Shown here: positions 26,533-60,663 of the stretch, piece after piece
Layout: each line of letters begins with the position of its first letter
Numbering within the stretch: position 1 is the first letter of the stretch
DNA from: Candidatus Limnocylindria bacterium
GTDB lineage: Bacteria; Chloroflexota; Limnocylindria; P2-11E
Assembly (NCBI GenBank): GCA_038211425.1
Contig: JBBQVQ010000001.1
Location: 39,991 to 103,990 of the forward strand
Length of the DNA stretch: 64,000 bases
Direction of reading: 5' to 3'
Notes under the pieces: model-generated
Databases searched by the model: none
Told to the model about the DNA's origin: nothing
What the model saw: the letters and a program-made list of their open reading frames with translations, nothing else
Translations under genes and position numbers: made by a program

Positions 26533-26991
26533 ATGGCCGTCATCCACACGCGGCTGCGAGAGGCCAAGTTCACCGTCGCCTCGGCGGAGTCGTGCACAGG
26601 AGGACTGCTCGCAGCCATCCTGAGCGAGCACGGCGGATCCAGTGACTACTACCTCGGCGGCGCCGTGGTCTACAGCAATGCCGCCAAGACGGTCTTCGCG
26701 GACGTGCCGAGCCAGCTGATCCACGGCCACGGCGCAGTCTCCAGCGTCGTCGCGGCCGCGCTCGCCCACGGCGCCCGCGACCGGCTCGGGGCGCGGATCG
26801 GCCTCGGTATCACCGGGGTCGCCGGTCCAGGCGGGGGGACCGCGGGCAAGCCCGTCGGCCTCGTCTACGTCGCCGTGGAGAGCGAAGGCCTGTCCACCGT
26901 ACGGGCCTGCCGCTGGGGCTTCGACCGGGGCGGCAACAGGCTCGCCAGCGTCGGCGCCGCGCTGGACCTCCTTGAGCGGTGCGTCGCTTGA
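26533..26991 (+). CDS. CinA-family C-terminal domain protein (nicotinamide-nucleotide amidohydrolase PncC-like)
   Basis: Motif TVASAESCTGGLLAA...GVAGPGGG. ATG 26533 is preferred; the track start at 26473 would overlap pgsA. Confidence 0.75.
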   Translation: MAVIHTRLREAKFTVASAESCTGGLLAAILSEHGGSSDYYLGGAVVYSNAAKTVFADVPSQLIHGHGAVSSVVAAALAHGARDRLGARIGLGITGVAGPGGGTAGKPVGLVYVAVESEGLSTVRACRWGFDRGGNRLASVGAALDLLERCVA

Positions 26992-27950
26992 GCAAGCGCG
27001 AGATGGGCGTTGGCCTCCTCGGCCTCGGTACCGTCGGCAGCGCCGTCGCGCGCGCGTTCGCGGAACGCTCTCGCCTGCTCGATGCCGCGGCCGGGCGCCA
27101 TCTGCGGCTCGTCGCGGCGGCGGTACGCGACGGCGCACGGCCGCGCGACGCCGGCGACGTGCCGGTCACACTCGACCCGTTCGCCGTGCTCGACGCTCCT
27201 GACGTGCTCATCGTCGTCGAGGCCATCGGTGGCCGCAGCCCCGCATCCGACCTGCACCACGCGGCGTTCGAGCGCGGGAAGCACGTCGTCACCGCGAACA
27301 AGGAGCTCGTGGCTTGCGAATGGAATGCCCTGCACGAGGCGGCGCGCATGGCGAAGCGCGAGCTGCGCTACGAGGCGGCCGTCTCCGCCGGCGTCCCGGT
27401 CATCGCCGGCGCGCGGGCGCTCGGAGCGGCTCGTCCGCGGGCCCTGCGCGGCCTCCTGAACGGCACGACCGCGTACATCTGTTCGCGCCTGGAGGCGGGC
27501 ACCCCGTTCGACGCCGCTCTCGCGGAGGCCCAGTCCGCCGGGTACGCTGAGGCGGACCCGAGTAAGGATATCGACGGCTGGGACGCGGCGTACAAGCTCG
27601 CCATCCTCGTGAGCATCCTGGGTGGCCGGCACTTTTCTCCCGAGAAGGTGCGGCGATCGTCGCTTCGTGAGGCGACCCCCGAGGCCGCCACATCGGCAGC
27701 CCGCCGCGGCGCGCGTCTGCGCCACGTCGCGGTCGCGGACTTCGGTGCGAAAGCAACGAAGGGCCGCGTGGGACCGGAGGAGGTCCCGGCCGATTCGCTC
27801 GAGGGGACCGCCAGCGGGCCGACAAACGTCGTGACCATCGACACGGACCTCACCGGAAGGCTCGTGTGGATGGGCGCAGGCGCGGGCGGCGACCCGACCG
27901 CGAGCGCGATCCTCGGCGACGTCCTCGCTATCGCGCGGGCCGCTCCGTGA
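26979..27950 (+). CDS. hom: homoserine dehydrogenase (no ACT domain)
   Basis: GVGLLGLGTVGSAV Rossmann motif and ..TANKEL.. catalytic region. GTG at 26979 overlaps the cinA stop; an alternative ATG is at 27003. Confidence 0.85.
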   Translation: MRRLSKREMGVGLLGLGTVGSAVARAFAERSRLLDAAAGRHLRLVAAAVRDGARPRDAGDVPVTLDPFAVLDAPDVLIVVEAIGGRSPASDLHHAAFERGKHVVTANKELVACEWNALHEAARMAKRELRYEAAVSAGVPVIAGARALGAARPRALRGLLNGTTAYICSRLEAGTPFDAALAEAQSAGYAEADPSKDIDGWDAAYKLAILVSILGGRHFSPEKVRRSSLREATPEAATSAARRGARLRHVAVADFGAKATKGRVGPEEVPADSLEGTASGPTNVVTIDTDLTGRLVWMGAGAGGDPTASAILGDVLAIARAAP

Positions 27951-29341
27951 CGACGACGGTGCTGAAGTTCGGCGGGACATCGGTCGGTTCGCCGGATGCC
28001 GTACGCCACGCCGTGGCCATCGTCGCGGCCACGCCCGGAAGCCGCGTGGTCGTCGTATCCGCGACGGCGGGTACGACGAACGCCCTCATGGACGCCGCGC
28101 GGCTCGGGGCGGAAGGCGACGACCTCGGTGCCCAGCGCGCGATCGGCATGATCGCCGACCGCCACCAGGACCTCGCGGCGGACCTCCTTGGGGATGCCGG
28201 CGCGGCGGTACAGACCGAGCTTGCCGATCTCGCGGAACGCACGAGCGCGCTCCTGCGAAGCGTCGCGATCCTGCGCGAATGCACCCCGCGCAGCCGGGAC
28301 GCGGTCGCCTCGTACGGGGAGCGCGCCTCTGCCCCCATCGTGGCCGCAGCGCTCGCCTCGCGCGACATCACCGCGTCAGCGGTAGCGGGCGACGTGATCG
28401 TCGTCACGGACGACGCTTTCGGCGAGGCCAGCCCACTCCTGAATGAGACGCGCGAGCGCGTGCGGGAGGTCCTCGGGTCCCTCCTGCAACGGCACCATGT
28501 CCCGGTCGTCGGCGGCTACGTCGGAGCGACCCGCGACGGCGTCACCACGACGCTCGGTCGCGGCGCTTCCGACTACACCGCCGCCTTGCTCGCCGCGGCT
28601 CTGCCTGCGGACGAGCTGCGCATCTACACTGACGTGAGCGGGGTCATGAGCGCCGATCCGCGCGTGGTACCGGACGCGCGTCCGCTCGCGACGCTTTCGT
28701 ACGCCGAGGTCGCCGAGCTCTCGCACTTCGGCGCGAAGGTGCTCCATCCACGCGCGGTCCTACCGGCGGTCGAGGCGGGGATCCCGGTCCGCATCCTCAA
28801 TACGTTCTCTCCCGCCGATGCCGGCACCACCATCGCGGCGCAGGCGGAGCGCGACGGGAGCATCGTGAAGGCGACGACCTCGCTCGGGGGACTCGGTCTC
28901 ATCACGGTGCAGGGAGCCGGCATGAGCGGCGTCCCCGGATTCGCGGCACGTGTATTCGACACCTCAGCCGACGAGCGGGTCTCGGTGCTCATGATCAGCC
29001 AATCGTCGAGCGAGAACACGATCTGCCTCGTCGTGCCGGGCGGCGCGGCGGAGCGGCTGCGCAAAGCGCTGGAGCGCAACCTCGCGCGCGAGCTGGGCCG
29101 CCACGACGTGGAGCGCGTCAGCGTGGAGTCGCCGGTCGCGATCGTCGCCGCGGTGGGGGAGGGGATGCGCGGCACGCCGGGCGTGGCCGCGCGCGTCTTC
29201 GCGGCTCTGGGCACCGCCGGGGTGAACGTCATCGCCATCGCGCAGGGCTCGAGCGAGCGGAACATCTCGCTCGTCGTCGCGGACGCGGATCGCGGACGCG
29301 CCGTCAGGGCCATCCACGACCAGTTCCGCCCGGGCGGGTGA
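27947..29341 (+). CDS. ask: aspartate kinase (two ACT domains)
   Basis: VLKFGGTSVG kinase motif and a C-terminal ACT pair. GTG overlaps the hom stop (GTGA); the R-rich upstream extension of the track ORF is judged spurious. Confidence 0.9.
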   Translation: MTTTVLKFGGTSVGSPDAVRHAVAIVAATPGSRVVVVSATAGTTNALMDAARLGAEGDDLGAQRAIGMIADRHQDLAADLLGDAGAAVQTELADLAERTSALLRSVAILRECTPRSRDAVASYGERASAPIVAAALASRDITASAVAGDVIVVTDDAFGEASPLLNETRERVREVLGSLLQRHHVPVVGGYVGATRDGVTTTLGRGASDYTAALLAAALPADELRIYTDVSGVMSADPRVVPDARPLATLSYAEVAELSHFGAKVLHPRAVLPAVEAGIPVRILNTFSPADAGTTIAAQAERDGSIVKATTSLGGLGLITVQGAGMSGVPGFAARVFDTSADERVSVLMISQSSSENTICLVVPGGAAERLRKALERNLARELGRHDVERVSVESPVAIVAAVGEGMRGTPGVAARVFAALGTAGVNVIAIAQGSSERNISLVVADADRGRAVRAIHDQFRPGG

Positions 29342-29348
29342 CCGGGCG

Positions 29349-29729
29349 CTACTGGCCGGCGTGGGGGTTGATGACGCCATCCCGCTCGTGCTGCTCGCGC
29401 AGCTTCTCGACTTCCGACTTGTCCAGGCGTTCGACACCGACCGTGCGGCCTTCGGCCTCCTCGAGGGCCGTCAGCACCTCGTCGAGCTTCAGCTGGAGCG
29501 CGGCCATGTCCCGCGCCTCGGCCCGGTTCGAGAAGAAGACGAGCGTCAGCGTCAGCAGCGAGATGATGAGAGGGAGATCGAGTGCCTGAGGGGGGAGGCC
29601 GAGGACATGCCCCGCGAGCAGCCAGGTCGCGATGAAGAGTGCGGCCATCAACGGCGCGATCCAGTGCCCGAGCCAGTCCCGCACCCTGTCGACGAGGCGT
29701 CCATAGACGACGTGCGATGACGCGCTCAC
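29349..29729 (-). CDS. small membrane protein, low-affinity iron permease family-like
   Basis: Two TM helices followed by the conserved FSNRAEARDMAALQLKLDEVL...coiled tail. GTG at 29729 chosen; the track ORF start at 29876 adds a non-protein-like extension. Confidence 0.45.
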   Translation of the reverse strand: MSASSHVVYGRLVDRVRDWLGHWIAPLMAALFIATWLLAGHVLGLPPQALDLPLIISLLTLTLVFFSNRAEARDMAALQLKLDEVLTALEEAEGRTVGVERLDKSEVEKLREQHERDGVINPHAGQ

Positions 29730-29817
29730 GGCGCCACGATAGTTGCACTCCGCCGTTCCGCGGCGCCGCAGCGCGAGGGTCGCGCCGCGGGGCTGCCGCG
29801 TCTGCGAGACTTGAGGC

Positions 29818-30864
29818 GTGAGGAAGCGGCGCGTCGCGGTGTTGGGCGCCACGGGCACGGTCGGCCAACGGTTCATCAGCCTGCTCGTGGATCACCCTTG
29901 GTTCGAGCTGGCCGCGCTGACGACTTCCCGCGAGAAGGCGGGGAGGCGATACGCGGACGTCACGCCGTGGCACTTCGGCGAGCGCATCCCGGACAGCGTC
30001 GGATCCATGCTGCTCGAGCCGACGCGTGCGGACCTCGATGCGGAGATCTGCTTCAGCGCCCTGCCTTCAGAGGCCGCGGAGGAGCATGAGGCCGCCCTCG
30101 CCTCGACGGGGCACCACGTGTTCTCGAACGTGAAGAACCACCGGATGGACGAGGACGTGCCGCTCATCATCGCCGAGGTCAACCCGGATCACGCCCGCGC
30201 GCTCGCTGTGCAGCGACGGCGGCGCGGCTGGTCCGGGTCGCTCGTGACCAACGGGAACTGCTCCGCGATCCACCTCGCCCTCGCGCTCGCCCCGCTGCAT
30301 CGGAGCTTCGGGATCGAGCGGCTCGTCGTCACGACGATGCAGGCGCTCTCGGGCGCCGGCTATCCGGGGGTCGCGTCCCTCGACGCGCTCGACAACGTCG
30401 TCCCGTACATCGGCGAGGAGGAGGAAAAGCTCGCCGCCGAGACGCGCAAGTTCCTCGGTGGATGGGACGGGGAGGCATTCGTCCCGGCTTCGTTCCCGGT
30501 ATCGGCGCATTGCAACCGCGTGAGCGTCCGCGACGGGCACACCGAAACGGTCAGCATCGCTCTCTCCGGGTCGCCGGCCGTGCACGCTGTGAAGGAGGCG
30601 CTCGCCGGGTTCCGCGGACGCCCCCAGGAGCTCGGCCTGCCGTCGGCGCCGGAGCATCCGATCGTCGTGCGTGATGAGCCGGACCGGCCCCAGCCCATCC
30701 TCGACCGCGACGCCGAGCGTGGGATGGCCTCGGTGGTCGGCCGGGTCCGCGAGGACGAGGTCCTCGGGATCAAGTTCGTGCTTCTCGGCCACAATACGAT
30801 CCGCGGCGCCGCGGGCGCGTCGGTGCTGAACGCCGAGCTGCTCTGCGCCGAGGCGATGCTGTAG
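29818..30864 (+). CDS. asd: aspartate-semialdehyde dehydrogenase
   Basis: VAVLGATGTVGQ NAD-binding motif and GNCS active-site Cys. Forms an ask–asd pair. Confidence 0.92.
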   Translation: MRKRRVAVLGATGTVGQRFISLLVDHPWFELAALTTSREKAGRRYADVTPWHFGERIPDSVGSMLLEPTRADLDAEICFSALPSEAAEEHEAALASTGHHVFSNVKNHRMDEDVPLIIAEVNPDHARALAVQRRRRGWSGSLVTNGNCSAIHLALALAPLHRSFGIERLVVTTMQALSGAGYPGVASLDALDNVVPYIGEEEEKLAAETRKFLGGWDGEAFVPASFPVSAHCNRVSVRDGHTETVSIALSGSPAVHAVKEALAGFRGRPQELGLPSAPEHPIVVRDEPDRPQPILDRDAERGMASVVGRVREDEVLGIKFVLLGHNTIRGAAGASVLNAELLCAEAML

Positions 30865-33693: not shown

Positions 33694-34473
33694 GTGCAGG
33701 TCGATCTCACAGGACGGGTCGCGATCGTCACGGGATCGACCCGCGGGATCGGGCGGGGGATCGCGCTCGCGCTCGCCGCGAACGGGGCTCGCGTCGTGGT
33801 CAACGGACGTTCGGCGGAGGCGGCGGCCGAGGTCGCCCACCAGATCGTCGAGAGCGGTGGGGCGGCCCGTGACCACGCAGGCGACCTCGCCGTTCCCGAG
33901 ACGCTGGACGGCCTGGTCGACGCCGCATCCGCCCTGGGTGGCCTCGACATCCTGGTCAACAACGCCGGCCTCACCGATACCTTCGGGGCATTCCTCGAGA
34001 CGCCCGACGAACGCACCGACGAGATCCTCGCGGTGAATCTGCGGGCGGCGATGGTCCTCTGCCGGCGCGCCGCGCGATCGATGGCGCAGCGCCGCCGGGG
34101 CGCCATCGTGAACGTCACCTCGGTCGGAGGGTCGCAGCGGGCGCACCATGACAACGTCGCGTACGACACAACCAAGGGCGGCCTCGACGCGCTGACGCGC
34201 GCGCTCGCCGTCGACCTGGGGCCGCTGGGCATCCGCGTGAACGCCGTCGGCCCCGCCGCGACCAGCGACGCACCCCCGGAGGGCCGCGGCGGCGACCTCC
34301 CACTTCGCAGGGGCGGTACTCCGGGGGATGTGGCCAACGCGGTGCTCTACCTGGTATCCGACGAGGCCGCGTTCGTCACCGGCCAGATCCTGTACATCGA
34401 TGGCGGGCTCTCCGCTCAGCTGCGCAGCCCGGCGGAAGCTCTCTCGAGCCAGAACGAGATCGTCCGTGACTAG
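33694..34473 (+). CDS. SDR-family oxidoreductase
   Basis: TGSTRGIGRGIA Rossmann motif and Y...K catalytic dyad (AYDTTK). GTG start. Confidence 0.85.
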   Translation: MQVDLTGRVAIVTGSTRGIGRGIALALAANGARVVVNGRSAEAAAEVAHQIVESGGAARDHAGDLAVPETLDGLVDAASALGGLDILVNNAGLTDTFGAFLETPDERTDEILAVNLRAAMVLCRRAARSMAQRRRGAIVNVTSVGGSQRAHHDNVAYDTTKGGLDALTRALAVDLGPLGIRVNAVGPAATSDAPPEGRGGDLPLRRGGTPGDVANAVLYLVSDEAAFVTGQILYIDGGLSAQLRSPAEALSSQNEIVRD

Positions 34474-34474
34474 G

Positions 34475-35614
34475 GTGGTGGTCGCATCGCCGACCGCGTC
34501 GGCGATCGAGCGGGTCCGATGCGCGCTCTATCGGCTGCCGCTGCCGGAGCCGGTCAGCGACGCCAAGGTCTACAGCGGCCGCCAGCTGCCCCTCTCCGAA
34601 GTCGACGTCGTGGTGACCGAGGTCGGGACCGCGGACGGGCTCGCGGGCCTCGGCTTCAGCTACTCCAAGCGCGCTGGAGGCCCCGCGATCTTCGCCCACG
34701 CGCGGCAGATCGCGCCGCTCCTCCTGGGCGAGGATGCGCTCGAGATCGGCCGGCTGTGGGAGAAGCTCGTATGGGCATCGGCATCGGTGGGCCGGGAGGG
34801 TGTGGCGGTCCAGTCCGTCGCAGCGTTCGACATCGCGCTTCACGATCGAATGGCGAAGTTCACGGGCCTGTCGCTCGCGAAACTGCTCGGGAGCTACCGA
34901 GACCGTGTTCGCTGTTACGACACCGCCGGTGGATTCCTGTCGACATCGGTCGAGGCCATCGTGGGCAACGCTGAGCGCAGCCTCGCTCGAGGCATGGGAG
35001 GGATCAAGCTCAAGGTGGGCGGAGAACCGAACAGCGACCTGGCACGCGTCGCCGCGGTCCGCGACGCGCTGGGTGAGCGTTCGCCCCTGATGGTCGATGC
35101 GAACCAACAATGGGATCGGTCCACTGCCCGGCTGTTGGGCCGCCGGTTGGCCAAGTACGACCTGCAATGGATCGAGGAGCCGCTCGACGCGTACGACGTG
35201 GAGGGGCACGCGGCTCTGCGGCAGGCGCTCGACGTACCGATCGCGACAGGCGAGATGCTGACTTCCGGTCGCGACCACCGGCGTCTGCTACTGGCCCAGG
35301 CCGTGGACGTCATCCAGCCCGACGCGATCCGTATCGGCGGCGTCACGCCGTATCGCCGCGTCGCGGAGCTCGCACTCGAGGCCGGCGTGCTGGTGGCCCC
35401 GCACTTCGCTCCTGAGCTCCACGTGCATCTCGCGGCTGCCCACCCGCGGGAAGGCTGGGTGGAGTACTTCGATTGGCTCCAGCCGCTGTTCGCGGAGCGC
35501 CTCGAGCTGCGCGATGGCAGCGTGCTCGTCCCGGATCGCCCAGGGCTCGGGCTGAGCCTAGATCCCGGTGCCGCGGGCATGCTCGTGACCGAGACCAGTT
35601 TTCCCGAGCGCTGA
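34475..35614 (+). CDS. enolase-superfamily enzyme (mandelate racemase/muconate lactonizing enzyme family; sugar-acid dehydratase or cycloisomerase candidate)
   Basis: KLKVGG barrel motif and metal ligands D/E/D (MVDANQQW, IEEP, DAIR). GTG at 34475, 2 nt after the SDR stop. Confidence 0.8.
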   Translation: MVVASPTASAIERVRCALYRLPLPEPVSDAKVYSGRQLPLSEVDVVVTEVGTADGLAGLGFSYSKRAGGPAIFAHARQIAPLLLGEDALEIGRLWEKLVWASASVGREGVAVQSVAAFDIALHDRMAKFTGLSLAKLLGSYRDRVRCYDTAGGFLSTSVEAIVGNAERSLARGMGGIKLKVGGEPNSDLARVAAVRDALGERSPLMVDANQQWDRSTARLLGRRLAKYDLQWIEEPLDAYDVEGHAALRQALDVPIATGEMLTSGRDHRRLLLAQAVDVIQPDAIRIGGVTPYRRVAELALEAGVLVAPHFAPELHVHLAAAHPREGWVEYFDWLQPLFAERLELRDGSVLVPDRPGLGLSLDPGAAGMLVTETSFPER

Positions 35615-35618
35615 TCTC

Positions 35619-36848
35619 GTGCGGATCGTCGAACTTCGAGCCACGCCCGTCGCCATGGCGGATCCGCCTCTGCGGAGCGCGTTCGGATTGCACGCGCCCT
35701 CCGCGCTCCGGACGATCGTGGAGATCGAGACCGATGAGGGCGTCGTCGGGCTATCCGAGACCTACGGCGGCGAGGCTCCGCTCCACTCGCTCCGGGAGGC
35801 GCGAGAACGAGTCGTCGGCCGTGATCCGAACGACCTGACGAGTCTGCGGGTCGAGATCGAGGGGCCGGGCGGCGTGTCGGGCGACTACCGCCCCTGGGAG
35901 GCTCGGGCGCTCGTAGGACCGGCGCTCTTCGGCGCGATCGAGGTCGCGTGCCTCGACGCGATCGGCAAGAAGCTGGGGCGGCCGATGTGCGATCTCTTGG
36001 GCGGCGCGGTGCGAGATCGGGTCCCGTTCTCGGCGTACCTGTTCTTCAAGCAGGCCGGGAACGATGAATGGGGCGAGGTGCTGACCACGGAGGCTCTCCT
36101 TCGCGAGGCGCGGCGCATGCGGGAGCGATACGGCTTCGGTTCGCTGAAGCTGAAGGGAGGCGTCCTGGAGCCGGATGTCGAGGTCGAGACGGTGCGCGCA
36201 CTGCGCGAAGCGTTCGGTCCGGGGGTCGCGCTGCGTCTCGATCCGAATGCCGCGTGGAGCGTCCCGACGAGCCTGCGCGTCGTTGGCGCGCTCGCGGGTA
36301 CGCTCGAGTACCTAGAGGATCCGACGCCCGGCATCGACGGCATGGCCGCCGTGGCCGCGGGGTCCCCGATCCCGCTCGCGACCAACATGTGCGTTACGGC
36401 CTTCGAGCACATCCCGGCCGCGGTCGCGAAGCGCGCGGTGGGGATCATCCTGTCCGATCATCACATCTGGGGCGGCATGCGCGCCACGATCGAGCTCGCT
36501 CGGGTCTGTCGCTCGTTGGGGCTCGGCATCTCCATGCACTCGAACTCGCACCTCGGAGTCTCGCTCGCGGCCATGGTGCACGTCGCCGCGGCGCTACCGG
36601 AGCTCACGTATGCGTGCGACACCCACTACCCATGGCAGACCGACGAGGTCATCCGAGGAGGCAAGCTGCGGATCGAGGGGGGCGCTGTGGCGGTGCCTGG
36701 TGGTGGCGGCCTGGGCGTGGAGATCGATCGCGACGCGCTCGACGAGCTGCACGAGCGGTACCTGAGAACGGATCTCCGGGCGCGCGATGACGTCGCCGCC
36801 ATGCGGAAGGTCGTTCCGGACTGGCGCCCGCATGTGGGCGACTGGTGA
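35619..36848 (+). CDS. enolase-superfamily dehydratase, glucarate dehydratase-like
   Basis: 409 aa with the LKLKGGVLEPD motif and a LRLDPNAAW metal site, consistent with the GudD subgroup. Confidence 0.7.
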   Translation: MRIVELRATPVAMADPPLRSAFGLHAPSALRTIVEIETDEGVVGLSETYGGEAPLHSLREARERVVGRDPNDLTSLRVEIEGPGGVSGDYRPWEARALVGPALFGAIEVACLDAIGKKLGRPMCDLLGGAVRDRVPFSAYLFFKQAGNDEWGEVLTTEALLREARRMRERYGFGSLKLKGGVLEPDVEVETVRALREAFGPGVALRLDPNAAWSVPTSLRVVGALAGTLEYLEDPTPGIDGMAAVAAGSPIPLATNMCVTAFEHIPAAVAKRAVGIILSDHHIWGGMRATIELARVCRSLGLGISMHSNSHLGVSLAAMVHVAAALPELTYACDTHYPWQTDEVIRGGKLRIEGGAVAVPGGGGLGVEIDRDALDELHERYLRTDLRARDDVAAMRKVVPDWRPHVGDW

Positions 36849-36906
36849 GAGGCAGGCCATCCGGCGTCCGGACCCGCGGCCCCGTTCGGGCGACAATACC
36901 GGCGGT

Positions 36907-37851
36907 ATGAGACCGCAGGAGCTGAGCGACCGCCTTCGCGGCACGTTGGCGTTCCCGGTCACCCCGTTCGATACGGCCCTGCGCATCGACGAGGCAGGCT
37001 TTCGGGAGAACCTCGAGCGGCTGGCGAGCTCGTCCGTCGCCGCACTGGTCGTCGCCGGCGGCACGGGTGAATTCCACGCGCTCGACCCGCAGGAGATCGA
37101 GGCGCTCTGCCGGGTCGCCGTCGCCGTCTGCGCGGGACGGATGCCGGTCGTCGTCGGCGTCGGCGGGAATGCCAAGGTTTCAAGCGCGCTCGCCGAGCGC
37201 TGCGAGGCCGCGGGCGCGGACGGCCTCCTGATGATGCCGCCTTCGTACGGCCGCGCGGAGGACGACGGTCTGTTCGCCTACTACGAGGCGATCGCGACCT
37301 CCGTCTCGATCGGCGTGTTTCCCTATGCTCGCGACCACGCCGTGCTTTCACCGGCCCTCGTGGCGCGGCTGGCGCGCATCGACAACGTGATCGCCTTCAA
37401 GGACGGGCACGGGGATCTGCGCCTGTGGAAGCGCATCCGAGAGCAAGTGGGTGGCGAGCTCCGGTGGCTCGCGGGGGTGGGGGACGATCTCGCACCGCAG
37501 TACTTCAGCGCGGGCGCGGAGGGCTTCACGTCGAGCATCGCCAACCTCGATCCGGCGATAGCGTGCCGGCTCTTCCGGCTCGCGACGACGGACGCCGCCG
37601 CCGCCGAGGCTTTCGTGGCACGCCACATCCAGCCGATCTACTCGCTGCGCTCGAGGCGCAGGGGCTACGAGGTCACCACGATCAAGGCCGCGATGGAGAG
37701 GCTCGGGCGACCCGCCGGACCCGTACGTCCGCCGCTGATCGCCCTGGCGCCCGAGGACTCGGAGGACCTCGACCACGCGATCGCGGCGCTCGGCTCCGCG
37801 CAGGAGGGGAGCCGAGCGGCCAGTGGACCGGCGTCCGTCCAGCGAAAATAG
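36907..37851 (+). CDS. DapA-family aldolase/dehydratase, 5-dehydro-4-deoxyglucarate dehydratase (KdgD)-like
   Basis: MRPQELSDRLRGTLAFPVTPFD...VVAGGTGEF N-terminus typical of KdgD/DHDPS-like enzymes. The R-rich track extension (36787) is judged spurious. Confidence 0.7.
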   Translation: MRPQELSDRLRGTLAFPVTPFDTALRIDEAGFRENLERLASSSVAALVVAGGTGEFHALDPQEIEALCRVAVAVCAGRMPVVVGVGGNAKVSSALAERCEAAGADGLLMMPPSYGRAEDDGLFAYYEAIATSVSIGVFPYARDHAVLSPALVARLARIDNVIAFKDGHGDLRLWKRIREQVGGELRWLAGVGDDLAPQYFSAGAEGFTSSIANLDPAIACRLFRLATTDAAAAEAFVARHIQPIYSLRSRRRGYEVTTIKAAMERLGRPAGPVRPPLIALAPEDSEDLDHAIAALGSAQEGSRAASGPASVQRK

Positions 37852-42751: not shown

Positions 42752-43723
42752 CTATGGGGCGGTCGAGAGACGTCCGCGCTCGAGCCGCTCGGCGTCGTCG
42801 AAGTGGCGCCGGAGCTCGGCCGAGGTGATCTTCGTGTAGCGCCGCGTCGTCTGGGGGCTCGCGTGTCCCGCGAGCTCCTGCGCGGCGAGAAGGCCAGCGT
42901 GGCGCGCGACGATCGTCAAACGGCCGTGACGGAACCAGTGCGGCGAAAAGTCGTCGGGTAGGCCCGCGCGGCGAGCCAATGCGGTCACGAGTGCCTGGAC
43001 CGAACGAGGAGCGACCGGGTACACGTCCTTCACCGGAATGCGCTCGCGCGTGGTCGGATCGACTACGCGCCGCACGGTCCGTCGCGAGACGAAGAGGTGC
43101 GGCGACTCGTCGCGCCGCGTGTTCAAATACCTCGTCAGCCATTCCGCGGCGTCGGCAGTGAGGTACGTGCCGCGCACCTTCTTGCCCTTGCCGAGCACCT
43201 CGACCTCGCGCGTTCGGAGGTCCACGCGGCGACGGGTGAGCGCGCAAAGCTCCGAGAGCCGGCAGCCCGTCGCAAAGAGCACCTCCAGCAGGGCACGATC
43301 CCGCAACTTGGTCTGGGACTTGGATGGCAGCGCCGCGATGAGGCGGTCGAAGTCGGCGCGCTCCATGTGGCGTGTCTGGCGGTCGCCGATCTTCGCGAGG
43401 ACGACGGTGTCCGGGGCCGGCAGCGCCTGATCGCAACGCGTGACGCCGTGACGGATCAGCCCACGCAGGGCCGACGCATACAGATTGCGCGTGGCGAGCG
43501 TCAGCGGCCCGTCGGGGGTCCGACGCTCGGCCAGGTCCATCTGGTACGCCACGATGAGCGGCCGGTCGATGTGCGCCGCGGGAGCCGCGAGCGCGACGCC
43601 GCGGCCTTCCGCGAAATCCAAGAAGTCGCGGACGTAGGCATGGTAATGCGATACGGTCCGCTCGGCCCTTCCGGCGAGCGTGAGATGGGCGAAGTAGTCG
43701 TCGACCAGCTCAGCGAGCGTCAT
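42752..43723 (-). CDS. tyrosine-type site-specific recombinase/integrase (XerC/D-like)
   Basis: N-terminal core-binding domain and catalytic R...H.LR.....Y residues (HWFRHGRLT, RRYTKI). Start taken at MTLAELVDDYFAHL (aa 66 of track ORF 42752..43918). Confidence 0.85.
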   Translation of the reverse strand: MTLAELVDDYFAHLTLAGRAERTVSHYHAYVRDFLDFAEGRGVALAAPAAHIDRPLIVAYQMDLAERRTPDGPLTLATRNLYASALRGLIRHGVTRCDQALPAPDTVVLAKIGDRQTRHMERADFDRLIAALPSKSQTKLRDRALLEVLFATGCRLSELCALTRRRVDLRTREVEVLGKGKKVRGTYLTADAAEWLTRYLNTRRDESPHLFVSRRTVRRVVDPTTRERIPVKDVYPVAPRSVQALVTALARRAGLPDDFSPHWFRHGRLTIVARHAGLLAAQELAGHASPQTTRRYTKITSAELRRHFDDAERLERGRLSTAP

Positions 43724-43966
43724 CGAGGCTATGGGCCGTACCCGCACACATGGCGAAGCGTATGTCATTCGAGTGCTCGCCCGGCTGCGCTCGCCGACGC
43801 GGTCACGCGCCAATTGGTCGAATGGGTGGGGGAGCGCAACTCCTGCGGCTCCTTTTCGTCGTGCGGATGTCTTCGTGAGAACCCACCCGCGTCGAGATCT
43901 CGTAGGCGCTCGGGCCAACGACCGTCATCGAGCCGTCCGACCAGTGGCCAGACTTAGACTTCGCCG

Positions 43967-45230
43967 ATGAGGACGGCCATCAGGAAGGCACTGGGGACGG
44001 TGGTCCTCGGGGCACTCCTCGGCTACGTCGTCATGGCGTTCGGCGGTCCGATGGTCCAGCAGCTGGCGCTCTTCGGCCAGCGCGAGGCCCCCGAGGCACG
44101 CCGCTACATGATCGGCGTGCTGCAGAACGAGCCCGAGACGCTGTCCGCGCTCAGCCCGCGCGCCGATCTCGTGTCGCGCGCGCTCCAGTTCCAGAGAGCC
44201 AGCAGGCGCAGGGCCAGTGGCGGCCCATCTCTCTGACCTACCTGGGCGGAGGGACTTCGGGGACGCTGAGCGTCCACATATACGCGATCGAACTGCGCGG
44301 CACGCAGGGTCGCGAGCAGTTTATCTCGTTCGCCCTCACGCTCGCCAACGGCAAGGTCATCCGGCGGGAATGAGGGCCGTCGCGACCGTCCTCGTCCCCG
44401 CCGGCTCGCGCAGCTCGTCGACAGCGACCTGCTCAAGGCGCTTGGGCCGGCCCTGCAGCCGCTCCAGGAGATCCTCGAGGTGAAGTTCGTTGGTGCGGCG
44501 GAGCGAAAAGGCGACATCCTCTCCGCATACGTGGCGAGTGGGCGTGATATGAGCGGTCGCAGCTTCTCCGTGGGTGTGGTCTTCCGCGTCAGTGGTTCCT
44601 CTCGCGGCCGCGCAAGTACGTGGTCACACCGGACAGCCCGCAGATCGGGCTCTCGTTCGCGAATTACCGGGGCCAGTCGGACCTGCTCGAGCACGCAAAG
44701 ACCACGGTCAAGATCCTGCGCGGCGTACGCCGCTTCCGCGAGCTCGGCGGAGAGCCGCCGCGCGGAATGCTCCTCTCGCGAGGGCGCCCGGCACCGGCAA
44801 GACGTTCCTCGCCGGCGTGATGGCGGCCGAGGCGAACCTCCCGTTCATCTACATCGACGCCTCTTCGCTCACGGACCTCGATCGGGGTCCAGCCGACGGA
44901 GTCCGCGACCATCATGTCGGTTCTCCGGCTGCAGGTACCTCGCCACGTCGAGGTCCGGGACGTGTGCCTTCCCATCGACGAGCTCGACTCCATCGGGCTC
45001 AGCCGCGGCGGCATGCAGGGCAGCCAGGGGCAGGGCGGCATGGGCGGGATGGGACTCAAGACGATCATCAGAGCTCTTCCTCGGAACGAAGATGACCGGC
45101 GCCGGGAGCGACCTCCAGACAGCGAGCACGCACGCGCTCATGTGTACGTCTCGCAGTTCGGCATGGGCCCGAGCCTCCTCACGTCGCCGATGCGTGGACC
45201 CGCCGGCGGGTCCTCTCGCCTAACTTAGCG
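43967..45230 (+). pseudogene. AAA+ ATPase (FtsH-like) pseudogene disrupted by at least two frameshifts
   Basis: The protein is recoverable only by frame-hopping. An N-terminal TM-like ORF (43967..44236) is followed by the pre-Walker-A segment FANYRGQSDLLEHAKTTVKILRGVRRFRELGGEPPRGMLLS in frame 1, Walker A APGTGKTFLAGVMAAEANLPFIYIDAS in frame 0, and Walker B CLPIDELDSIG back in frame 1. The first shift maps to a missing G in a G-run near 44790. Confidence 0.6.
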
Positions 45231-49412: not shown

Positions 49413-50678
49413 CTAGAAGGCGGCGTTGAGCTCGGCGGCGAGCGACGGCGGAACGTCCGCCTCGATCTCGATCCCCCGCTCGTTGTAGTCGGCGCGGTGC
49501 AGAGCCCCTCGTTCGCGGATGCGCTGGACCATCGCGCCCGATGCGTGAGGGAGCGTGAGCGCGACGCGCTGCCACAACGAGGCCGCGAGCAGAGCGATGC
49601 GTGCGCGGAGCTCCTCGAGTCCCGCACCGCGCAGGGCGGACACGAAGATGGCCTCCGGGAACTCGGCGCCGAGCGCCTCATGGAGCGCCTCGCCCTCGGG
49701 TCCCGAGAGCGCGTCAGCCTTGTTGAGCACGAGCAGGGTCGAACGCTCCTGGAGCCCCAGCGAGCGGAGGGTGTCCCGGACGACGGCGCTCTGCTCGTGC
49801 ACGTTCGGGTGCGACACATCGGCCACGTGGATCAGCAGATCGGCTCCGTCGAGCTCCTCGAGCGTCGCGTGGAACGCCGCGACGAGCGTCGGCGGCAGCT
49901 TGTTCACGAAGCCGACCGTATCCGAAAGCAGCGCCAGCGTGCCGTTCGGCAGCGCGATCCTGCGCGTCGTCGGATCGAGCGTAGCGAACGGCTGATCGGC
50001 GACGAGCACCTCGGAGCCGGACAGCGCGTTCAGTAGCGTGGACTTTCCGGCATTCGTGTACCCGACCAGCGCTGCGAGGAACAGCCCTTCCGCGGCGCGC
50101 GAGCGTCTGCTGCGGGCCCGCTGGGCCGAAAGCTCGTCGAGCCGTCCCTTCAGCTCCTGGATCCGGCGGCGGATCACCTGCCTGTCGCTCTCGAGCTTGG
50201 ACTCGCCTGGCCCGCGCGTTCCGATACCACCGCCGAGGCGCGAAAGGCCGAGCGATCCTCCGGTCAAGCGGGGCAGGCGGTATTCGAGCTGCGCGAGCTC
50301 CACCTGGAGGCGGCCCTCCCTGGTCCGCGCGTGCCGCGCGAATATGTCGAGGATCAGCGCGGAGCGGTCGATCACTGCGAGCTTTGTCGCCTTCTCGAGC
50401 GATCGCTGCTGCGTCGGCGACAGCTCGTCGTCGCAGACCAGGAGATCCGCGGCCACGCGGCCGCACTCGAGGGCGACCTCCTCGAGCTTCCCCTTCCCCA
50501 CCCAGCTGTTCGGATCGGGCGCACGGCGGCGTTGCTCGCTGCGCCCGACGACTCGTGCGTCGGCGGCAACCGCCAGCGCCGCCAGCTCGTCGAGCGAGTC
50601 CTCGACGTCGAGGGTGGCGCCCGGGGTCTGCAGCCCGAGCAGGAACGCGCGCTCCGGCGGATCCGCCGTGTCGATCAT
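49413..50678 (-). CDS. hflX: GTPase HflX
   Basis: HflX N-domain, G1 GYTNAGKSTLLNAL, DTVGF and NKAD motifs. ATG at 50678 has a gagggag RBS; the track extension is judged spurious. Confidence 0.9.
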   Translation of the reverse strand: MIDTADPPERAFLLGLQTPGATLDVEDSLDELAALAVAADARVVGRSEQRRRAPDPNSWVGKGKLEEVALECGRVAADLLVCDDELSPTQQRSLEKATKLAVIDRSALILDIFARHARTREGRLQVELAQLEYRLPRLTGGSLGLSRLGGGIGTRGPGESKLESDRQVIRRRIQELKGRLDELSAQRARSRRSRAAEGLFLAALVGYTNAGKSTLLNALSGSEVLVADQPFATLDPTTRRIALPNGTLALLSDTVGFVNKLPPTLVAAFHATLEELDGADLLIHVADVSHPNVHEQSAVVRDTLRSLGLQERSTLLVLNKADALSGPEGEALHEALGAEFPEAIFVSALRGAGLEELRARIALLAASLWQRVALTLPHASGAMVQRIRERGALHRADYNERGIEIEADVPPSLAAELNAAF

Positions 50679-50821
50679 CGTCGCTGCTCCCTCTGAAAAA
50701 ACGCGGCATGCATGCGCCTGCGCGCTTGCGCGGGCAGCAGCATCGTGGATGAGGAGTGTGCCACCCCGAGCGAAAAGGGACCGCGTCCCCGGCGACGCAA
50801 CGGCGTCGGTAGCATGCGGGC

Positions 50822-51400
50822 GTGACCCCACCACCCTCCCGCGCATTGGCGCGCGCCTGGTTCGACATCGGCACGCAGTCGGTCGGCGGAGGCACGAGCA
50901 CCCTGTTCATGATCCGGCGGATCCTCGTCGAGCGGCATGGATGGATCTCGCTTCGAGATTTCACCGAGGCATGGGTCCTATCGCAGCTGAGCCCGGGGAT
51001 CCACCTCGTGGCCCTCGCGGGTCTCCTTGGCCGGCGCATCGCCGGGCTTCGCGGGGTCGTGGTCTCGGTCGGCGGCATGATGCTCCCCGCGGCGGCCATC
51101 ACGGCGATCCTCACCGCGCTCTTCAGCGGCATCGCGGAGCATCCGCTGACGCTCGCGGCCCTTCTCGGCATCGGTCCGGTCGCCGCCGGTATGACCATCG
51201 GGCTCGCGCTCACGCTCGCGCGTCCGGTTGTGCACCGCGGTTGGTACGCGATCCTCGACGTCGCGCTCCTTGCGGCGGCCTTCGGCGTGCTGCTCAGGGG
51301 TGCCGCCCCGACCGTCGCCGTGATCGCGGGGAGCGCGGTCTTTGGCGCGTTCTTCCTCCGGCGCGAGCGTCCCACATCATCCGATGCCCCCATGAGCTGA
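50822..51400 (+). CDS. chrA: chromate transporter family protein (short-chain CHR, first half)
   Basis: 192 aa, four to five TM helices, CHR motif SQLSPGIH..G. Confidence 0.8.
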   Translation: MTPPPSRALARAWFDIGTQSVGGGTSTLFMIRRILVERHGWISLRDFTEAWVLSQLSPGIHLVALAGLLGRRIAGLRGVVVSVGGMMLPAAAITAILTALFSGIAEHPLTLAALLGIGPVAAGMTIGLALTLARPVVHRGWYAILDVALLAAAFGVLLRGAAPTVAVIAGSAVFGAFFLRRERPTSSDAPMS

Positions 51401-52762: not shown

Positions 52763-53197
52763 ATGCGGCCCCTGCTGGTCCTGGTCGGCGTGATGCTGGC
52801 GCTCGGCATGTCTTCGGCGAGCGCCCAGGCGGCGGACAAGGCGTGCGGGACCGTGTCCGCGGTCTTCTTCGGCGATCTCCCGAGCGGCGGGTTCGTGGCC
52901 ATCGACGGCCGCAGGTTCCAGGTCGGCGGCGTCAGTCCGCGCAACGTGGTGCTGCCACCCGCGACGCACCTGCGTGTCGGAGTGCGCGCTTGTGCCGTCG
53001 GGGACTTCCGTGCACTCGCGGACGGGACGGTGGACCTGTACAACGGCGAGGTGTTCGTCGAGGCGACGGCGGGGCCGCTCCCGAACACCAGCACAACGAC
53101 CGCAGACGTGGGCGGTGCGTTCGCCTTCGGCGTACTGGCCGCGGCCGGCCTCGCCGGCGCCGCGAAAGCGTTCGGCTCGAGCCGACAGCACAGCTGA
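52763..53197 (+). CDS. secreted/anchored hypothetical protein with C-terminal sorting-signal-like tripartite tail
   Basis: Signal peptide MRPLLVLVGVMLALGMSSASAQA and a small beta-rich domain. C-terminus PLPNTSTTTADVGG-AFAFGVLAAAGLAGAA-KAFGSSRQHS has a motif, hydrophobic helix and basic tail. Confidence 0.55.
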   Translation: MRPLLVLVGVMLALGMSSASAQAADKACGTVSAVFFGDLPSGGFVAIDGRRFQVGGVSPRNVVLPPATHLRVGVRACAVGDFRALADGTVDLYNGEVFVEATAGPLPNTSTTTADVGGAFAFGVLAAAGLAGAAKAFGSSRQHS

Positions 53198-53209: not shown

Positions 53210-54424
53210 TTGCCCGAACCACCGACGTTGATGACGCGCCTCCGCGCGAGGGTCGCCGGCGAGATCTCGACCGACACGATCGCCGCCTACCGGGCCGCCG
53301 GGGCCTCCGCCTACGGCCTCCTGGTCGAGGCCGAGCAGGAGCGGACGGTGCTCGCCACGGACGACTACTGGACCGTGTCCGCGTCTCAGCAGACGTTCTT
53401 CCTCGCCACATGGAATGCCTTCGTCCTGCAGAGCATCGCCGACGCCTTCATCGACGCGGACTTCGCCTTCGATCCCGGAACAGTGGGATTCGTGCCGCCG
53501 GTGACCGCCGAGCAGGCGATGCGCTTCTACGCCGGAGTCGAGCAGTGGCTGGTGCGTGCGCGTCAGGCGCAGGCCGACCCCCGCTACCGGCTCGATCTTC
53601 ACGTGCCCGCGGAGCTTCCGGCGTGGGTCGAGGTCGAGCCCTGCCCGGAGGCGCACCTGCACGCGATGCTGACGGCCTCGGGCAAGCTGCGCGAGCACGC
53701 CGAGCTCGCTGTCGCGGACCTGAGAAAGCGCGCGCCGCAGAGCCGCCAGTCCGATCTCACGAAGATCAAGTCGCTCCTGGCCGCCGCGCAGACAACGGCC
53801 GACTACGCCGAGCAGCTGCACACGCAGCTCCACGCCGGCCAGAGCGCAAGTCAGGACCTGCACGAGCGCATCGAGCGGTCGATCAAGGACGCCCTTGGGA
53901 AGGCCTTCCTCACCGGGCAACTCGCAGCGATGCCGCAGATCGACCAGTACGTTCCAGAGAGCGGGAGCGTCCCGACACAACGACTACCCGGTCCCGGTGA
54001 TCGCGGCTTCGATCCCTGGTGCCTGACCGATCCGCACACGCGAGCGCAGTGGCAGCGCGACCGACGAGCTCAGGCGGCGGTCGACGCGTTGTGGAAGTAC
54101 GACCCACATCCCGACCGTACGCTGGAGATCCAAGCCACGATCGACGCCGCTCTCGCGCGGGGCGATGTCGATTACGCCACCGACGCGAACGGCCGCCGCC
54201 TCGGTAATTACTTCTGCTGTCCCTGGTCGGCCGTCTACGTCGCCAAGCGGCCGATCGAGATCGGTGGCAAGCGCCTGCGGCCGCTGCAGCAGTTCACCTT
54301 CGACGTCTCGGCCGAGGAGATCGTCGAGGGCGGGGCCTTCAAGCGGGAGCTGCTCGTCGCGGACTTCTCCCGGACCGAAGACATCGACTATTGCGACCCG
54401 GGCGCGGACGGCCGTCACGAGTAG
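53210..54424 (+). CDS. hypothetical protein (404 aa, no recognised domain)
   Basis: TTG start with gagaggag RBS 6 nt upstream. Alpha-helical N-terminal half and Cys/Trp-containing C-terminal half (DPWCLTDP, GNYFCCPWSAVYV). Confidence 0.5.
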   Translation: MPEPPTLMTRLRARVAGEISTDTIAAYRAAGASAYGLLVEAEQERTVLATDDYWTVSASQQTFFLATWNAFVLQSIADAFIDADFAFDPGTVGFVPPVTAEQAMRFYAGVEQWLVRARQAQADPRYRLDLHVPAELPAWVEVEPCPEAHLHAMLTASGKLREHAELAVADLRKRAPQSRQSDLTKIKSLLAAAQTTADYAEQLHTQLHAGQSASQDLHERIERSIKDALGKAFLTGQLAAMPQIDQYVPESGSVPTQRLPGPGDRGFDPWCLTDPHTRAQWQRDRRAQAAVDALWKYDPHPDRTLEIQATIDAALARGDVDYATDANGRRLGNYFCCPWSAVYVAKRPIEIGGKRLRPLQQFTFDVSAEEIVEGGAFKRELLVADFSRTEDIDYCDPGADGRHE

Positions 54425-54475: not shown

Positions 54476-55234
54476 CTAGCTCGAAAGCTCGCCCTCGAAG
54501 ACGTATTCCGCCGGGCCGCTGAGAGTCCAGCGCTTTCCCGGGAGGACGACGAGGGCCCCGCCGGGCAGGTGCACGGAGATCCTGTCGCCGCGGGCATCGC
54601 CGCGCCCGAGGGCCGCGGCGGCGGCGGCGATCGCCCCGGTCCCGCACGCGAGCGTCACCCCCACTCCACGCTCGTCGACGCGGAGGCGGATAGCGCCGGC
54701 CGATCGCACCGCGGCGCAGCCCACGTTCCCCTCGCCCCCGGCAGCCCGCGCGGCGGCGGCGAAGGCGGTGAGGTCGATCGCCGCCGGCTCCGCGACGAAC
54801 GCGACCAGCTGGGTGTTGCCCGCGTCCACGCGCGTCGCCCCGTGCGGAGCGCCTCCATAGACGAACGTGAACCGGCCCACGACGCGCGGGGGCGCAAGCT
54901 CGATGGCGATCCCCGCGCCGTCCCGGCGGGCGCCGACGACCGCGCCGCGGGTACGCAGCCGCAGCCTCTCTCCTCCGTGGCGATCGAGCAGATACCGTGC
55001 GACGCATCGGGCGCCGTTGCCGCACGCCTCGGCGGTCGATCCATCGGCGTTGTGGATCCTCCAGTCCTACACGCGGTCGTCGCGATCTCCGATCACGAGG
55101 ACGCCATCGGCGCCGATCCCCAGCCTTCGATCGCAGAGAGCGGCCACGTGGGCGGCCGTCAGCGTCGCCCAACCGTCGTCGCCCTCGCCGACGATGAAGT
55201 CGTTGCCGCAGCCGTGCATCTTCGTGAACCTCAC
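54476..55234 (-). pseudogene. dapF: diaminopimelate epimerase with in-frame amber (TAG) codon at codon 56
   Basis: N-terminal 55 codons VRFTKMHGCGNDFIV...GDRDDRV, then TAG at 55069..55067, then DWRIHNADGSTAEACGNGARC. These continue in the same frame into track ORF 54476..54880 (C-terminal half with GTGAIAAAAAA and LPGG). The GTG start at 55234 overlaps the miaA stop (GTGA). The stop replaces a conserved aromatic position (E. coli DFHYRIFNADGS). Confidence 0.8.
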
Positions 55235-56127
55235 TTCGCGAGTGCCTCACGGATCATCTCGAGCGGATCGACGGTCGTTGGGTCGACCCACCGCACTTCC
55301 TGATCGCGACGGAACCACGTCATCTGGCGCCGCGCGTACGCGGAGGTGTCTTTCGCGGTGGCGGCGATCGCATCGCCAAGGTCGATCTCGCCTCGCAGAT
55401 GAGCAGCCCAGTGGATGTAGCCGTGGGCGCTCATGCTCGGGAGGCGCGGGTCGAGGCCGTCGGCCAGCAGCGTCGCGGTCTCCTCGAGCACGCCCCGCTC
55501 GACCATGCCTCGAACGCGGCTCTCGATCTCCCTACGGAGGAGGGGGCGAGGCGGACAGAGCCCGATTCGGATGGTCTCGAGGCATCCTCGGCGCGCTTGA
55601 TGACCGCTCGCGCTTCCCGTGAGCATCGCGATCTCGAGGTAACGCACGACGCGACGCACGTTGTGGGGATGGACACGTGCGGCCGCGGCGGGGTCACGCG
55701 AAGCCAGCTCCTGGTGGAGCGCGACGTCGCCGTGCTCTGTCGCTCGCGCCTCGAGCGCGGCGCGGAGGGGCGCATGAGTGGGCAGCGCGTCGAGCGCCAA
55801 CCCGTCGAGGAGGGCGCGCACGTACAGGCCCGTTCCCCCCGCGACGATCGGGACGCGGCCTCGGCGCTCGATCTCCGCGAGAGCCGCACGCGCTTCCCGC
55901 TGGTAGCGAGCCGCGTCGTAGCGTTCGCCGGGATCGGCGACGTCGATCAGGTGATGAGGGACGGCCCGCCGCTGCCCGGCCGTCGGTTTGGCGGTACCGA
56001 TGTCCATCCGGCGGTAGACCAGGCGCGAGTCCGCCGAGAGGATCTCCCCCTGGAGAAGCGTCGCGGCGCCGAGCGCGAGCGTCGTCTTGCCCGAGGCTGT
56101 CGGCCCCACGATCGCAAGGACCCTCAT
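55231..56127 (-). CDS. miaA: tRNA dimethylallyltransferase
   Basis: P-loop VGPTASGKT, motif DIGTAKP, 298 aa. Lies upstream of dapF. Confidence 0.92.
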   Translation of the reverse strand: MRVLAIVGPTASGKTTLALGAATLLQGEILSADSRLVYRRMDIGTAKPTAGQRRAVPHHLIDVADPGERYDAARYQREARAALAEIERRGRVPIVAGGTGLYVRALLDGLALDALPTHAPLRAALEARATEHGDVALHQELASRDPAAAARVHPHNVRRVVRYLEIAMLTGSASGHQARRGCLETIRIGLCPPRPLLRREIESRVRGMVERGVLEETATLLADGLDPRLPSMSAHGYIHWAAHLRGEIDLGDAIAATAKDTSAYARRQMTWFRRDQEVRWVDPTTVDPLEMIREALAK

Positions 56128-59747: not shown

Positions 59748-59905
59748 GAAGGGCGTCCATGCGGCAGAGCGCAGGGAAACACGCCACCGATCCGCTGAGT
59801 CGACCCGCGCGTCAGCCACACCATGACAGTGATCGGATGCTAGCGGGGGTGCCCCGCACCCCATCGTGAGCGTGCTGTCCATCCGCGTCGGTACCATGGG
59901 GATCC

Positions 59906-60544
59906 ATGGCGACCGTCATCCGCGCTCGAGAAAGCCGGACGCCTCGCGTGGGCGGCCGCCCGAGCGTCTCGTCGCCGGACGTGACGCCGTTCACCTTCGA
60001 CCCGCAGCGCGTTGCTCGCCTCGAGACGATGGCCTGGCGCGCGTACTACGAACGCCACTGGCTCGCTCTTGCCTACTTCACGGAGCGGGCATGCGCCGAC
60101 CAGTTCCACGTTCCACTCCCGATCTCGGCCCAGGCGGCTTACTACGCGACCCGCGGGGCGGTCGCCTTCAAGCCGGTCGACAACGATGTCGGCCTCGCCG
60201 TGGCCGCGCTCGCGCGCTACTACGCCATCGTGCGGCGGCACTCGGGCCTGGCGTTCGATCCCGCGGAGGTCGCGCGCACCGAGGTCCGCTACTGGGTCGT
60301 GCATAGGCGGCTGTCCGGAAGCGGCGACCATGCGGAGCTCGTCGACACGTTCGCCAAGCTCCACGCTTTGACGTTCGCCATCGGGACCGACCGCGCGCGC
60401 GAGTCGGCCGAGTGGCGCACCCGCGCCGCCATCACCGTCGACGACATCACCGGCCGGCGCTCGACGGATCAGGAAGGCGACTGGCGGCGGGTGGAGACCC
60501 AGCTCCGCCGCGGCTATCGCTCACTGGTGGCCGCGATCGCCTGA
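59906..60544 (+). CDS. hypothetical protein (212 aa, W/Y/R-rich, no recognised domain)
   Basis: ORF from the track. Helical protein with repeated AYY/RYY motifs. The start may be internal (MAWRAYYERHW). Confidence 0.4.
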   Translation: MATVIRARESRTPRVGGRPSVSSPDVTPFTFDPQRVARLETMAWRAYYERHWLALAYFTERACADQFHVPLPISAQAAYYATRGAVAFKPVDNDVGLAVAALARYYAIVRRHSGLAFDPAEVARTEVRYWVVHRRLSGSGDHAELVDTFAKLHALTFAIGTDRARESAEWRTRAAITVDDITGRRSTDQEGDWRRVETQLRRGYRSLVAAIA

Positions 60545-60564: not shown

Positions 60565-60663
60565 GGCATCCACGGCATCCGGGGCATCCACGGCATCCGC
60601 GGCATCCGGGGCATCCGGGGCATCCGGGGCATCCGGGGCATCCGGAGCATCCGGGGCATCCGG
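60565..60663. repeat. 11-copy tandem 9-bp repeat (consensus ggcatccgg; variants ggcatccac, ggcatccgc, agcatccgg) in convergent intergenic region
   Basis: Read directly from the sequence. Lies between the stop of 59906..60544 (+) and the stop of the permease 60664..61716 (-). Confidence 0.9.

Follow-up and report, generated by a model that had tools for sequence, protein, structure and literature searches.

A single in-frame amber codon interrupts the diaminopimelate epimerase gene (dapF) in the window, by which we mean the whole 64-kb stretch of DNA that was analysed. The codon stands at position 56 of the frame, where the ancestral codon is TGG (Trp), and the rest of the gene has not changed at an accelerated rate. 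The TAG is probably a real and very recent nonsense allele (TGG>TAG). On this reading, the mutation would be very young, being either a strain-level variant of the sampled population or an allele recently fixed in it, with no decay elsewhere in the gene. The genetic code is standard here, and there is no evidence for an altered code or a new mechanism.

The dapF gene and its neighbourhood

Translation showed that the dapF frame runs from a GTG at 55234 to a TAG at 54478..54476 with a single internal stop (Table 1). With the TAG at codon 56, no uninterrupted frame spans both domains of the enzyme. For the family models, codon 56 was set to W or X in the query. The masked product matched the Pfam model DAP_epimerase (PF01678) in two stretches (E = 1.1e-35; 122.7 bits against a cutoff of 34.7), and passed the NCBIfam DapF equivalog model TIGR00652 with 167 bits (cutoff 114.65). 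An alignment with 19 homologues showed that all 72 of the 72 family-invariant columns are kept in the window, including both catalytic cysteines and the GNDF motif; among the invariant columns are C71-G72-N73-G74, C197-G198, and G10-N11-D12-F13. The two cysteines (motifs CGNG and ACG[TS]G, one per domain) we take to be catalytic from the published DapF structures. The earlier note had described the frame as continuous from 55234 to 54476 except for the TAG at 55069-55067, as well conserved on either side of it, and as retaining both active-site cysteines. Coordinates and translation agree with this description, the codons of Cys71 and Cys197 are present, and the conservation is borne out by the invariant columns and the equivalog score.

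Table 1. Positions of dapF, its neighbours and other features in the window.
Feature	Position	Strand	Details
dapF (diaminopimelate epimerase) frame	54476..55234	minus	252 codons and terminator, one interruption; translation, Pfam, TIGR00652
Amber codon TAG, codon 56 of dapF	55067..55069	minus	ancestral TGG (Trp); on the plus strand, C>T at 55068
dapF N-terminal piece, 55 codons	55070..55234	minus	GNDF motif present, neither catalytic cysteine; GC3 0.85
dapF remainder 3' of the stop, 196 codons	54479..55066	minus	both catalytic cysteines; GC3 0.88
Cys71 codon of dapF	55024..55022	minus	
Cys197 codon of dapF	54646..54644	minus	
Natural terminator of dapF, TAG	54476..54478	minus	position close to orthologue ends
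miaA (tRNA isopentenyltransferase)	55231..56127	minus	Pfam IPPT E = 3.7e-77; TGA overlaps the dapF GTG as GTGA
404-aa conserved hypothetical	53210..54424	plus	convergent with dapF; no Pfam or NCBIfam match
144-aa ORF	52763..53197	plus	signal-peptide-like N-terminus; no Pfam or NCBIfam match
hflX stop-to-stop frame, TAG end	49416..50906	minus	Pfam GTP-bdg_N, GTP-bdg_M, MMR_HSR1
hom, ask (aspartate kinase with ACT domains), asd	within 26976..30861	plus	all intact
Two enolase-superfamily (MR_MLE) genes and KdgD-like gene	34241..37848	plus	beside an ABC sugar transporter
KdgD-like gene (DHDPS family)	36766..37848	plus	5-dehydro-4-deoxyglucarate dehydratase
Tyrosine integrase gene	42755..43924	minus	Pfam Phage_integrase E = 1.9e-28
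AAA+ ATPase remnant	44548..45225	plus	motifs split over two frames
ORF beside the tandem repeat	59870..60541		
Tandem repeat	60565..60663		11 copies of a 9-bp unit

The DNA of the two nearest relatives, L082 (GCA_046262615.1) and L081 (GCA_038200085.1), was compared with the window. The GTGA overlap of miaA and dapF, the coupling that the earlier note had pointed out, is identical in both. In these relatives, the gene order is MoxR-DUF58-DUF4129-miaA-dapF-M20 peptidase-RibD_C-ChrA-ChrA-hflX-MFS. The window differs from this order in one respect: two plus-strand ORFs stand in place of the M20 gene, and tblastn found no remnant of an M20 peptidase gene within the window. The 404-aa protein belongs to a large conserved family, with 565 matches including Amycolatopsis, Actinomycetota, and Rhodospirillales. 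The neighbours of this family differ elsewhere: M48 peptidase and PspA genes in L083, and DUF1360 in L084. Five genes, three of them on the opposite strand, separate dapF from hflX. The proposed miaA-dapF-hflX locus thus stands in part: miaA adjoins dapF, but hflX is only nearby, 3.6 kb downstream and five genes off.

Two other features of the window were observed. The AAA+ ATPase remnant adjoins the tyrosine integrase gene, and its motifs read '...GGEPPRGMLLS' in one frame, 'GAPGTGKTFLAGVMAAEANLPFIYIDASSLT' in another, and 'IDELDSIG' back in the first. This arrangement implies at least two frameshifts and a truncation; lying beside the integrase gene, the remnant is probably a decayed integrated element. 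The tandem repeat consists of the 9-bp unit GGCATCCGG in perfect register (91% matches), and sits between an ORF and an ABC-transporter permease gene.

The ancestral codon and the age of the lesion

A search of the protein collection returned 5,960 DapF relatives. The four closest proteins are 72-74% identical to the window protein and intact (253, 253, 248, and 253 aa, against 252 aa in the window); one of them carries a source name, a Candidatus Limnocylindria (Chloroflexota) MAG. The column of codon 56 contains Trp in 19 of the 19 aligned homologues, and Trp is conserved there at 95% or more among the 120 closest DapF proteins. Phe or Tyr occurs there in more distant DapF proteins with solved structures. 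The DNA of L081 and L082 aligns with the window over the site without gaps, and both have TGG opposite the TAG of the window. Because the two nearest relatives agree in this way, the lesion is a single transition, G>A as read on the coding strand. Among spontaneous changes in bacteria, G:C>A:T transitions are the most frequent. It had been suggested earlier that the amber codon sits at a conserved aromatic position and that a sequencing error might have turned TAC into TAG. The aromatic character holds across the distant solved proteins, but the lineage itself has Trp rather than Tyr, and with TGG as the ancestral codon the proposed TAC to TAG error falls away.

The in-frame stop at codon 56 was absent from every relative compared. 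A degenerate DNA pattern for DWRIHNADG preceded by W or a stop gave no match in the metagenome contigs. No contig of the same species was found; the motif scan of genome contigs was dominated by generic DapF motifs, and its best match was 57% identical. The protein search with dapF returned no 100%-identical fragment, which is consistent with a source record that holds no DapF protein, for example one in which the gene is marked as a pseudogene.

The constraint on the gene was assessed by relative rate. The mean identity of the whole window DapF to 116 outgroup homologues was 57.0%, compared with 57.0-58.1% for the four intact sisters. For the 196 residues past the stop, the values were 55.8% in the window and 55.6-56.7% in the intact sisters against the same homologues. 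GC3 on both sides of the stop is like that of other window genes, and the DNA alignment showed no indels in dapF relative to the two nearest relatives. For practically all of its history, the dapF frame has thus evolved under normal constraint. Since there is no accelerated change, the TAG must have arisen very recently, if it is real at all. The earlier argument that dapF is not an old pseudogene holds up, as the relative-rate comparison shows no excess divergence.

An older, dispensable pseudogene, explained by another dapF copy, by a bypass through meso-DAP dehydrogenase, or by a lost need for DAP or lysine synthesis, is in our view very unlikely. The locus is rearranged, with the M20 gene replaced in comparison with both relatives, and the window DapF carries two unique changes at conserved columns, E193V and V205A. 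Together with the stop at W56, these make three unique deviations at the columns conserved at 95% or more, compared with none or one in the sisters. However, the window DapF is the longest branch of its clade, and Ile occupies the position of E193 in a DapF of solved structure, 9mro; because of these two facts, the unique deviations are poor evidence of decay. The Ile of 9mro was also the ground for rejecting E193V as a further disabling change. Compared with the intact sisters there is no acceleration, and the frame has no indel and no second stop. The tblastn search found no second dapF within the window, in which ask, asd, and hom are intact. The M20 gene of the relatives was also considered as a dapE, which would have made its loss part of a pathway-loss story, and this was rejected: the M20 protein is dipeptidase-like and scores below every DapE/ArgE cutoff, so that its loss is not evidence of decay of the DAP pathway.

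An error of base calling, consensus, or polishing would also account for a TAG without any trace of age. The organism would then have TGG and a normal dapF, which is possible but rather unlikely. The gene is otherwise perfect, with invariant residues, GC3, divergence, and the GTGA overlap all kept, and this is the picture to be expected if a functional gene had been misread. All of the closest relatives are MAGs, the source is probably a MAG too, and low-coverage positions occur in such assemblies. The complete lack of secondary decay looks like a consensus error as well, and it counts against a real allele. However, about 57 other genes in the 64 kb are free of frameshift and stop, and because of this the assembly would seem to be accurate, with a low per-base error rate. 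The only other broken gene, the AAA remnant by the integrase, has several lesions and looks truly decayed. In general, a stop codon results from only a few percent of random substitutions, and graph-type assemblers normally output alleles that are truly in the reads. Pseudogenes at a few percent of genes are normal. We infer from these points that the base is probably real.

TAG as a terminator and the fate of the product

Segments between stops in all six frames of the window were scanned for the codon-position GC pattern of the genome (about 70% GC, with a GC3 of about 0.85-0.9) and annotated with Pfam. The terminators of about 47 Pfam-confirmed genes were TGA in 29, TAG in about 16, and TAA in 2. 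The TAG-ended genes include dapF, hflX, nusA, ribF, pnp, asd, uppP, RibD_C, and DUF58, and where orthologues in L082 were compared the lengths agree: they are 211 and 211 aa for RibD_C, 410 and 410 aa for DUF58, and 252 and 253 aa for DapF. Genome-wide recoding of TAG was rejected on these grounds, as TAG is a frequent terminator and the genes that it ends have orthologue-like lengths.

Among about 58 genes in the window, dapF is the only one split by an in-frame stop. Seven adjacent pairs of same-frame segments lie across one stop, and each was resolved as separate: IF2/RbfA, methyltransferase/UDG, UppP/non-coding, HflX/MFS, ChrA/ChrA, the 144-aa/404-aa ORFs, and MoxR/DUF58. The gaps in the scan are filled by intact genes, namely those for a DHH phosphoesterase, truB, pgsA, an ABC ATPase, and a permease. 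No tRNA genes and no matches to Rfam families were found within the 64-kb window. The RNA on the 3' side of the stop is not unusually structured: a stretch of 116 nt that starts immediately 5' of the TAG gave a fold comparable to those of shuffled sequences (z = 0.23).

These results bear on the reading in which a real TAG is decoded. Full-length DapF would then be made across a leaky stop, by means of an amber-suppressor tRNA encoded in the genome or of near-cognate read-through that is efficient or regulated. The frame 3' of the TAG is intact, a small amount of enzyme may suffice, and in E. coli UAG can be read by near-cognate tRNAs as Gln, Tyr, Trp, Glu, or Lys (PMC4333366); with Tyr or Trp, the conserved position would again be aromatic. 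A trace of full-length DapF is therefore conceivable, with no sign of enhancement at the site. However, the stop is unconserved at a position where the homologues have Trp and the nearest relatives TGG; TAG is a frequent and correctly placed terminator, that of dapF itself included; no other window gene contains an in-frame TAG; neither a tRNA gene nor an Rfam match was found in the window; and the RNA 3' of the stop is not unusually structured. As far as the window goes, read-through or reassignment fails for these reasons, and decoding of the TAG is extremely unlikely. Three candidates had been put forward in the earlier note. The recent nonsense mutation and the sequencing error remain, while programmed amber read-through, like reassignment of UAG, is contradicted by every test possible within the window.

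If the nonsense allele is real, its consequence would be simple. Translation, coupled to miaA via GTGA, would end after 55 residues, because TAG is an ordinary terminator in this genome. The peptide lacks both catalytic cysteines, and for this reason no diaminopimelate epimerase would be made, bar trace near-cognate read-through. A restart, or an enzyme in two pieces, was considered and rejected as not credible. The first in-frame ATG, GTG, or TTG 3' of the TAG is the GTG at 54880, which lies beyond Cys71, so that a start there would lose this residue; a GGAGG follows the TAG, and the only nearby ATG is out of frame. Since the next downstream gene is convergent, dapF is the last gene of its transcription unit here, and the stop would have no polar effect on downstream genes.

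The need for DapF and comparison with known systems

In most bacteria, no route from LL- to meso-diaminopimelate other than DapF is known, and a fixed knockout of dapF should for this reason carry a cost. The statement of the earlier note that dapF is normally essential was nevertheless too strong. According to PMC4086706, which refers to Richaud 1987 and Mengin-Lecreulx 1988, glucose minimal medium without supplements supports the growth of E. coli dapF null mutants, and the 1988 paper is reported to describe LL-DAP incorporation into the wall of these mutants. The loss might be tolerated here in the manner of the E. coli nulls, with LL-DAP in the wall; cross-feeding, or a bypass gene that lies beyond the window, might also make up for it.

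Several observations concern the pathway genes and their surroundings in the window. A small iron-permease gene lies between ask and asd on the opposite strand. The asd gene belongs to the asd_EA type (TIGR00978, 420.8 bits), which is archaeal/eukaryote-like, and not to the bacterial asd_B type. The DHDPS-family gene was considered as a dapA and rejected, as it is KdgD-like; it scored 270.5 bits against NF002958, just below the cutoff of 278. Together with the two enolase-superfamily genes, this dehydratase gene forms what looks like a sugar-acid catabolic cluster.

The significance of the lesion depends on which reading is correct. If the base is real, a Limnocylindria-like population, or one strain of it, would be without diaminopimelate epimerase; it would need external lysine or meso-DAP, have LL-DAP in its wall, or use a bypass, and this would be a minor point about auxotrophy among uncultured Chloroflexota of soil and freshwater. 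In the case of an error, the correct annotation would be an intact dapF. Decoding of the TAG, if it occurred, would mean that a core gene of the cell-wall and lysine pathway in an uncultured lineage of the Chloroflexota has a leaky stop, either naturally tolerated or regulatory. There is little significance beyond annotation.

Three known systems can be compared with the window dapF. Programmed read-through and amber reassignment, as in pyrrolysine decoding or with suppressor tRNAs, likewise have an in-frame UAG in an intact conserved enzyme gene. However, the stop in the window is unconserved and falls on a conserved Trp, TAG ends about one third of the window genes, and no tRNA or RNA element lies nearby. 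The E. coli dapF null mutants, as described in PMC4086706, share the loss of DapF, and they show that a bacterium can live without it. Those are laboratory mutants of a proteobacterium, and a member of the Chloroflexota may or may not tolerate the loss in the same way.

The third system is that of ordinary bacterial pseudogenes and loss-of-function alleles that arise by a single nonsense mutation. They share one substitution, intact orthologues, a standard code, and no recoding signal. Unlike a typical pseudogene, the window dapF has no secondary lesions and no relaxed constraint, and the sequence by itself cannot separate it from a consensus error; as a pseudogene or allele, it would fall at the youngest end of the range. 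Overall, the dapF gene itself is genuine, and what interrupts it is either an ordinary lesion by one nonsense mutation or an artefact.
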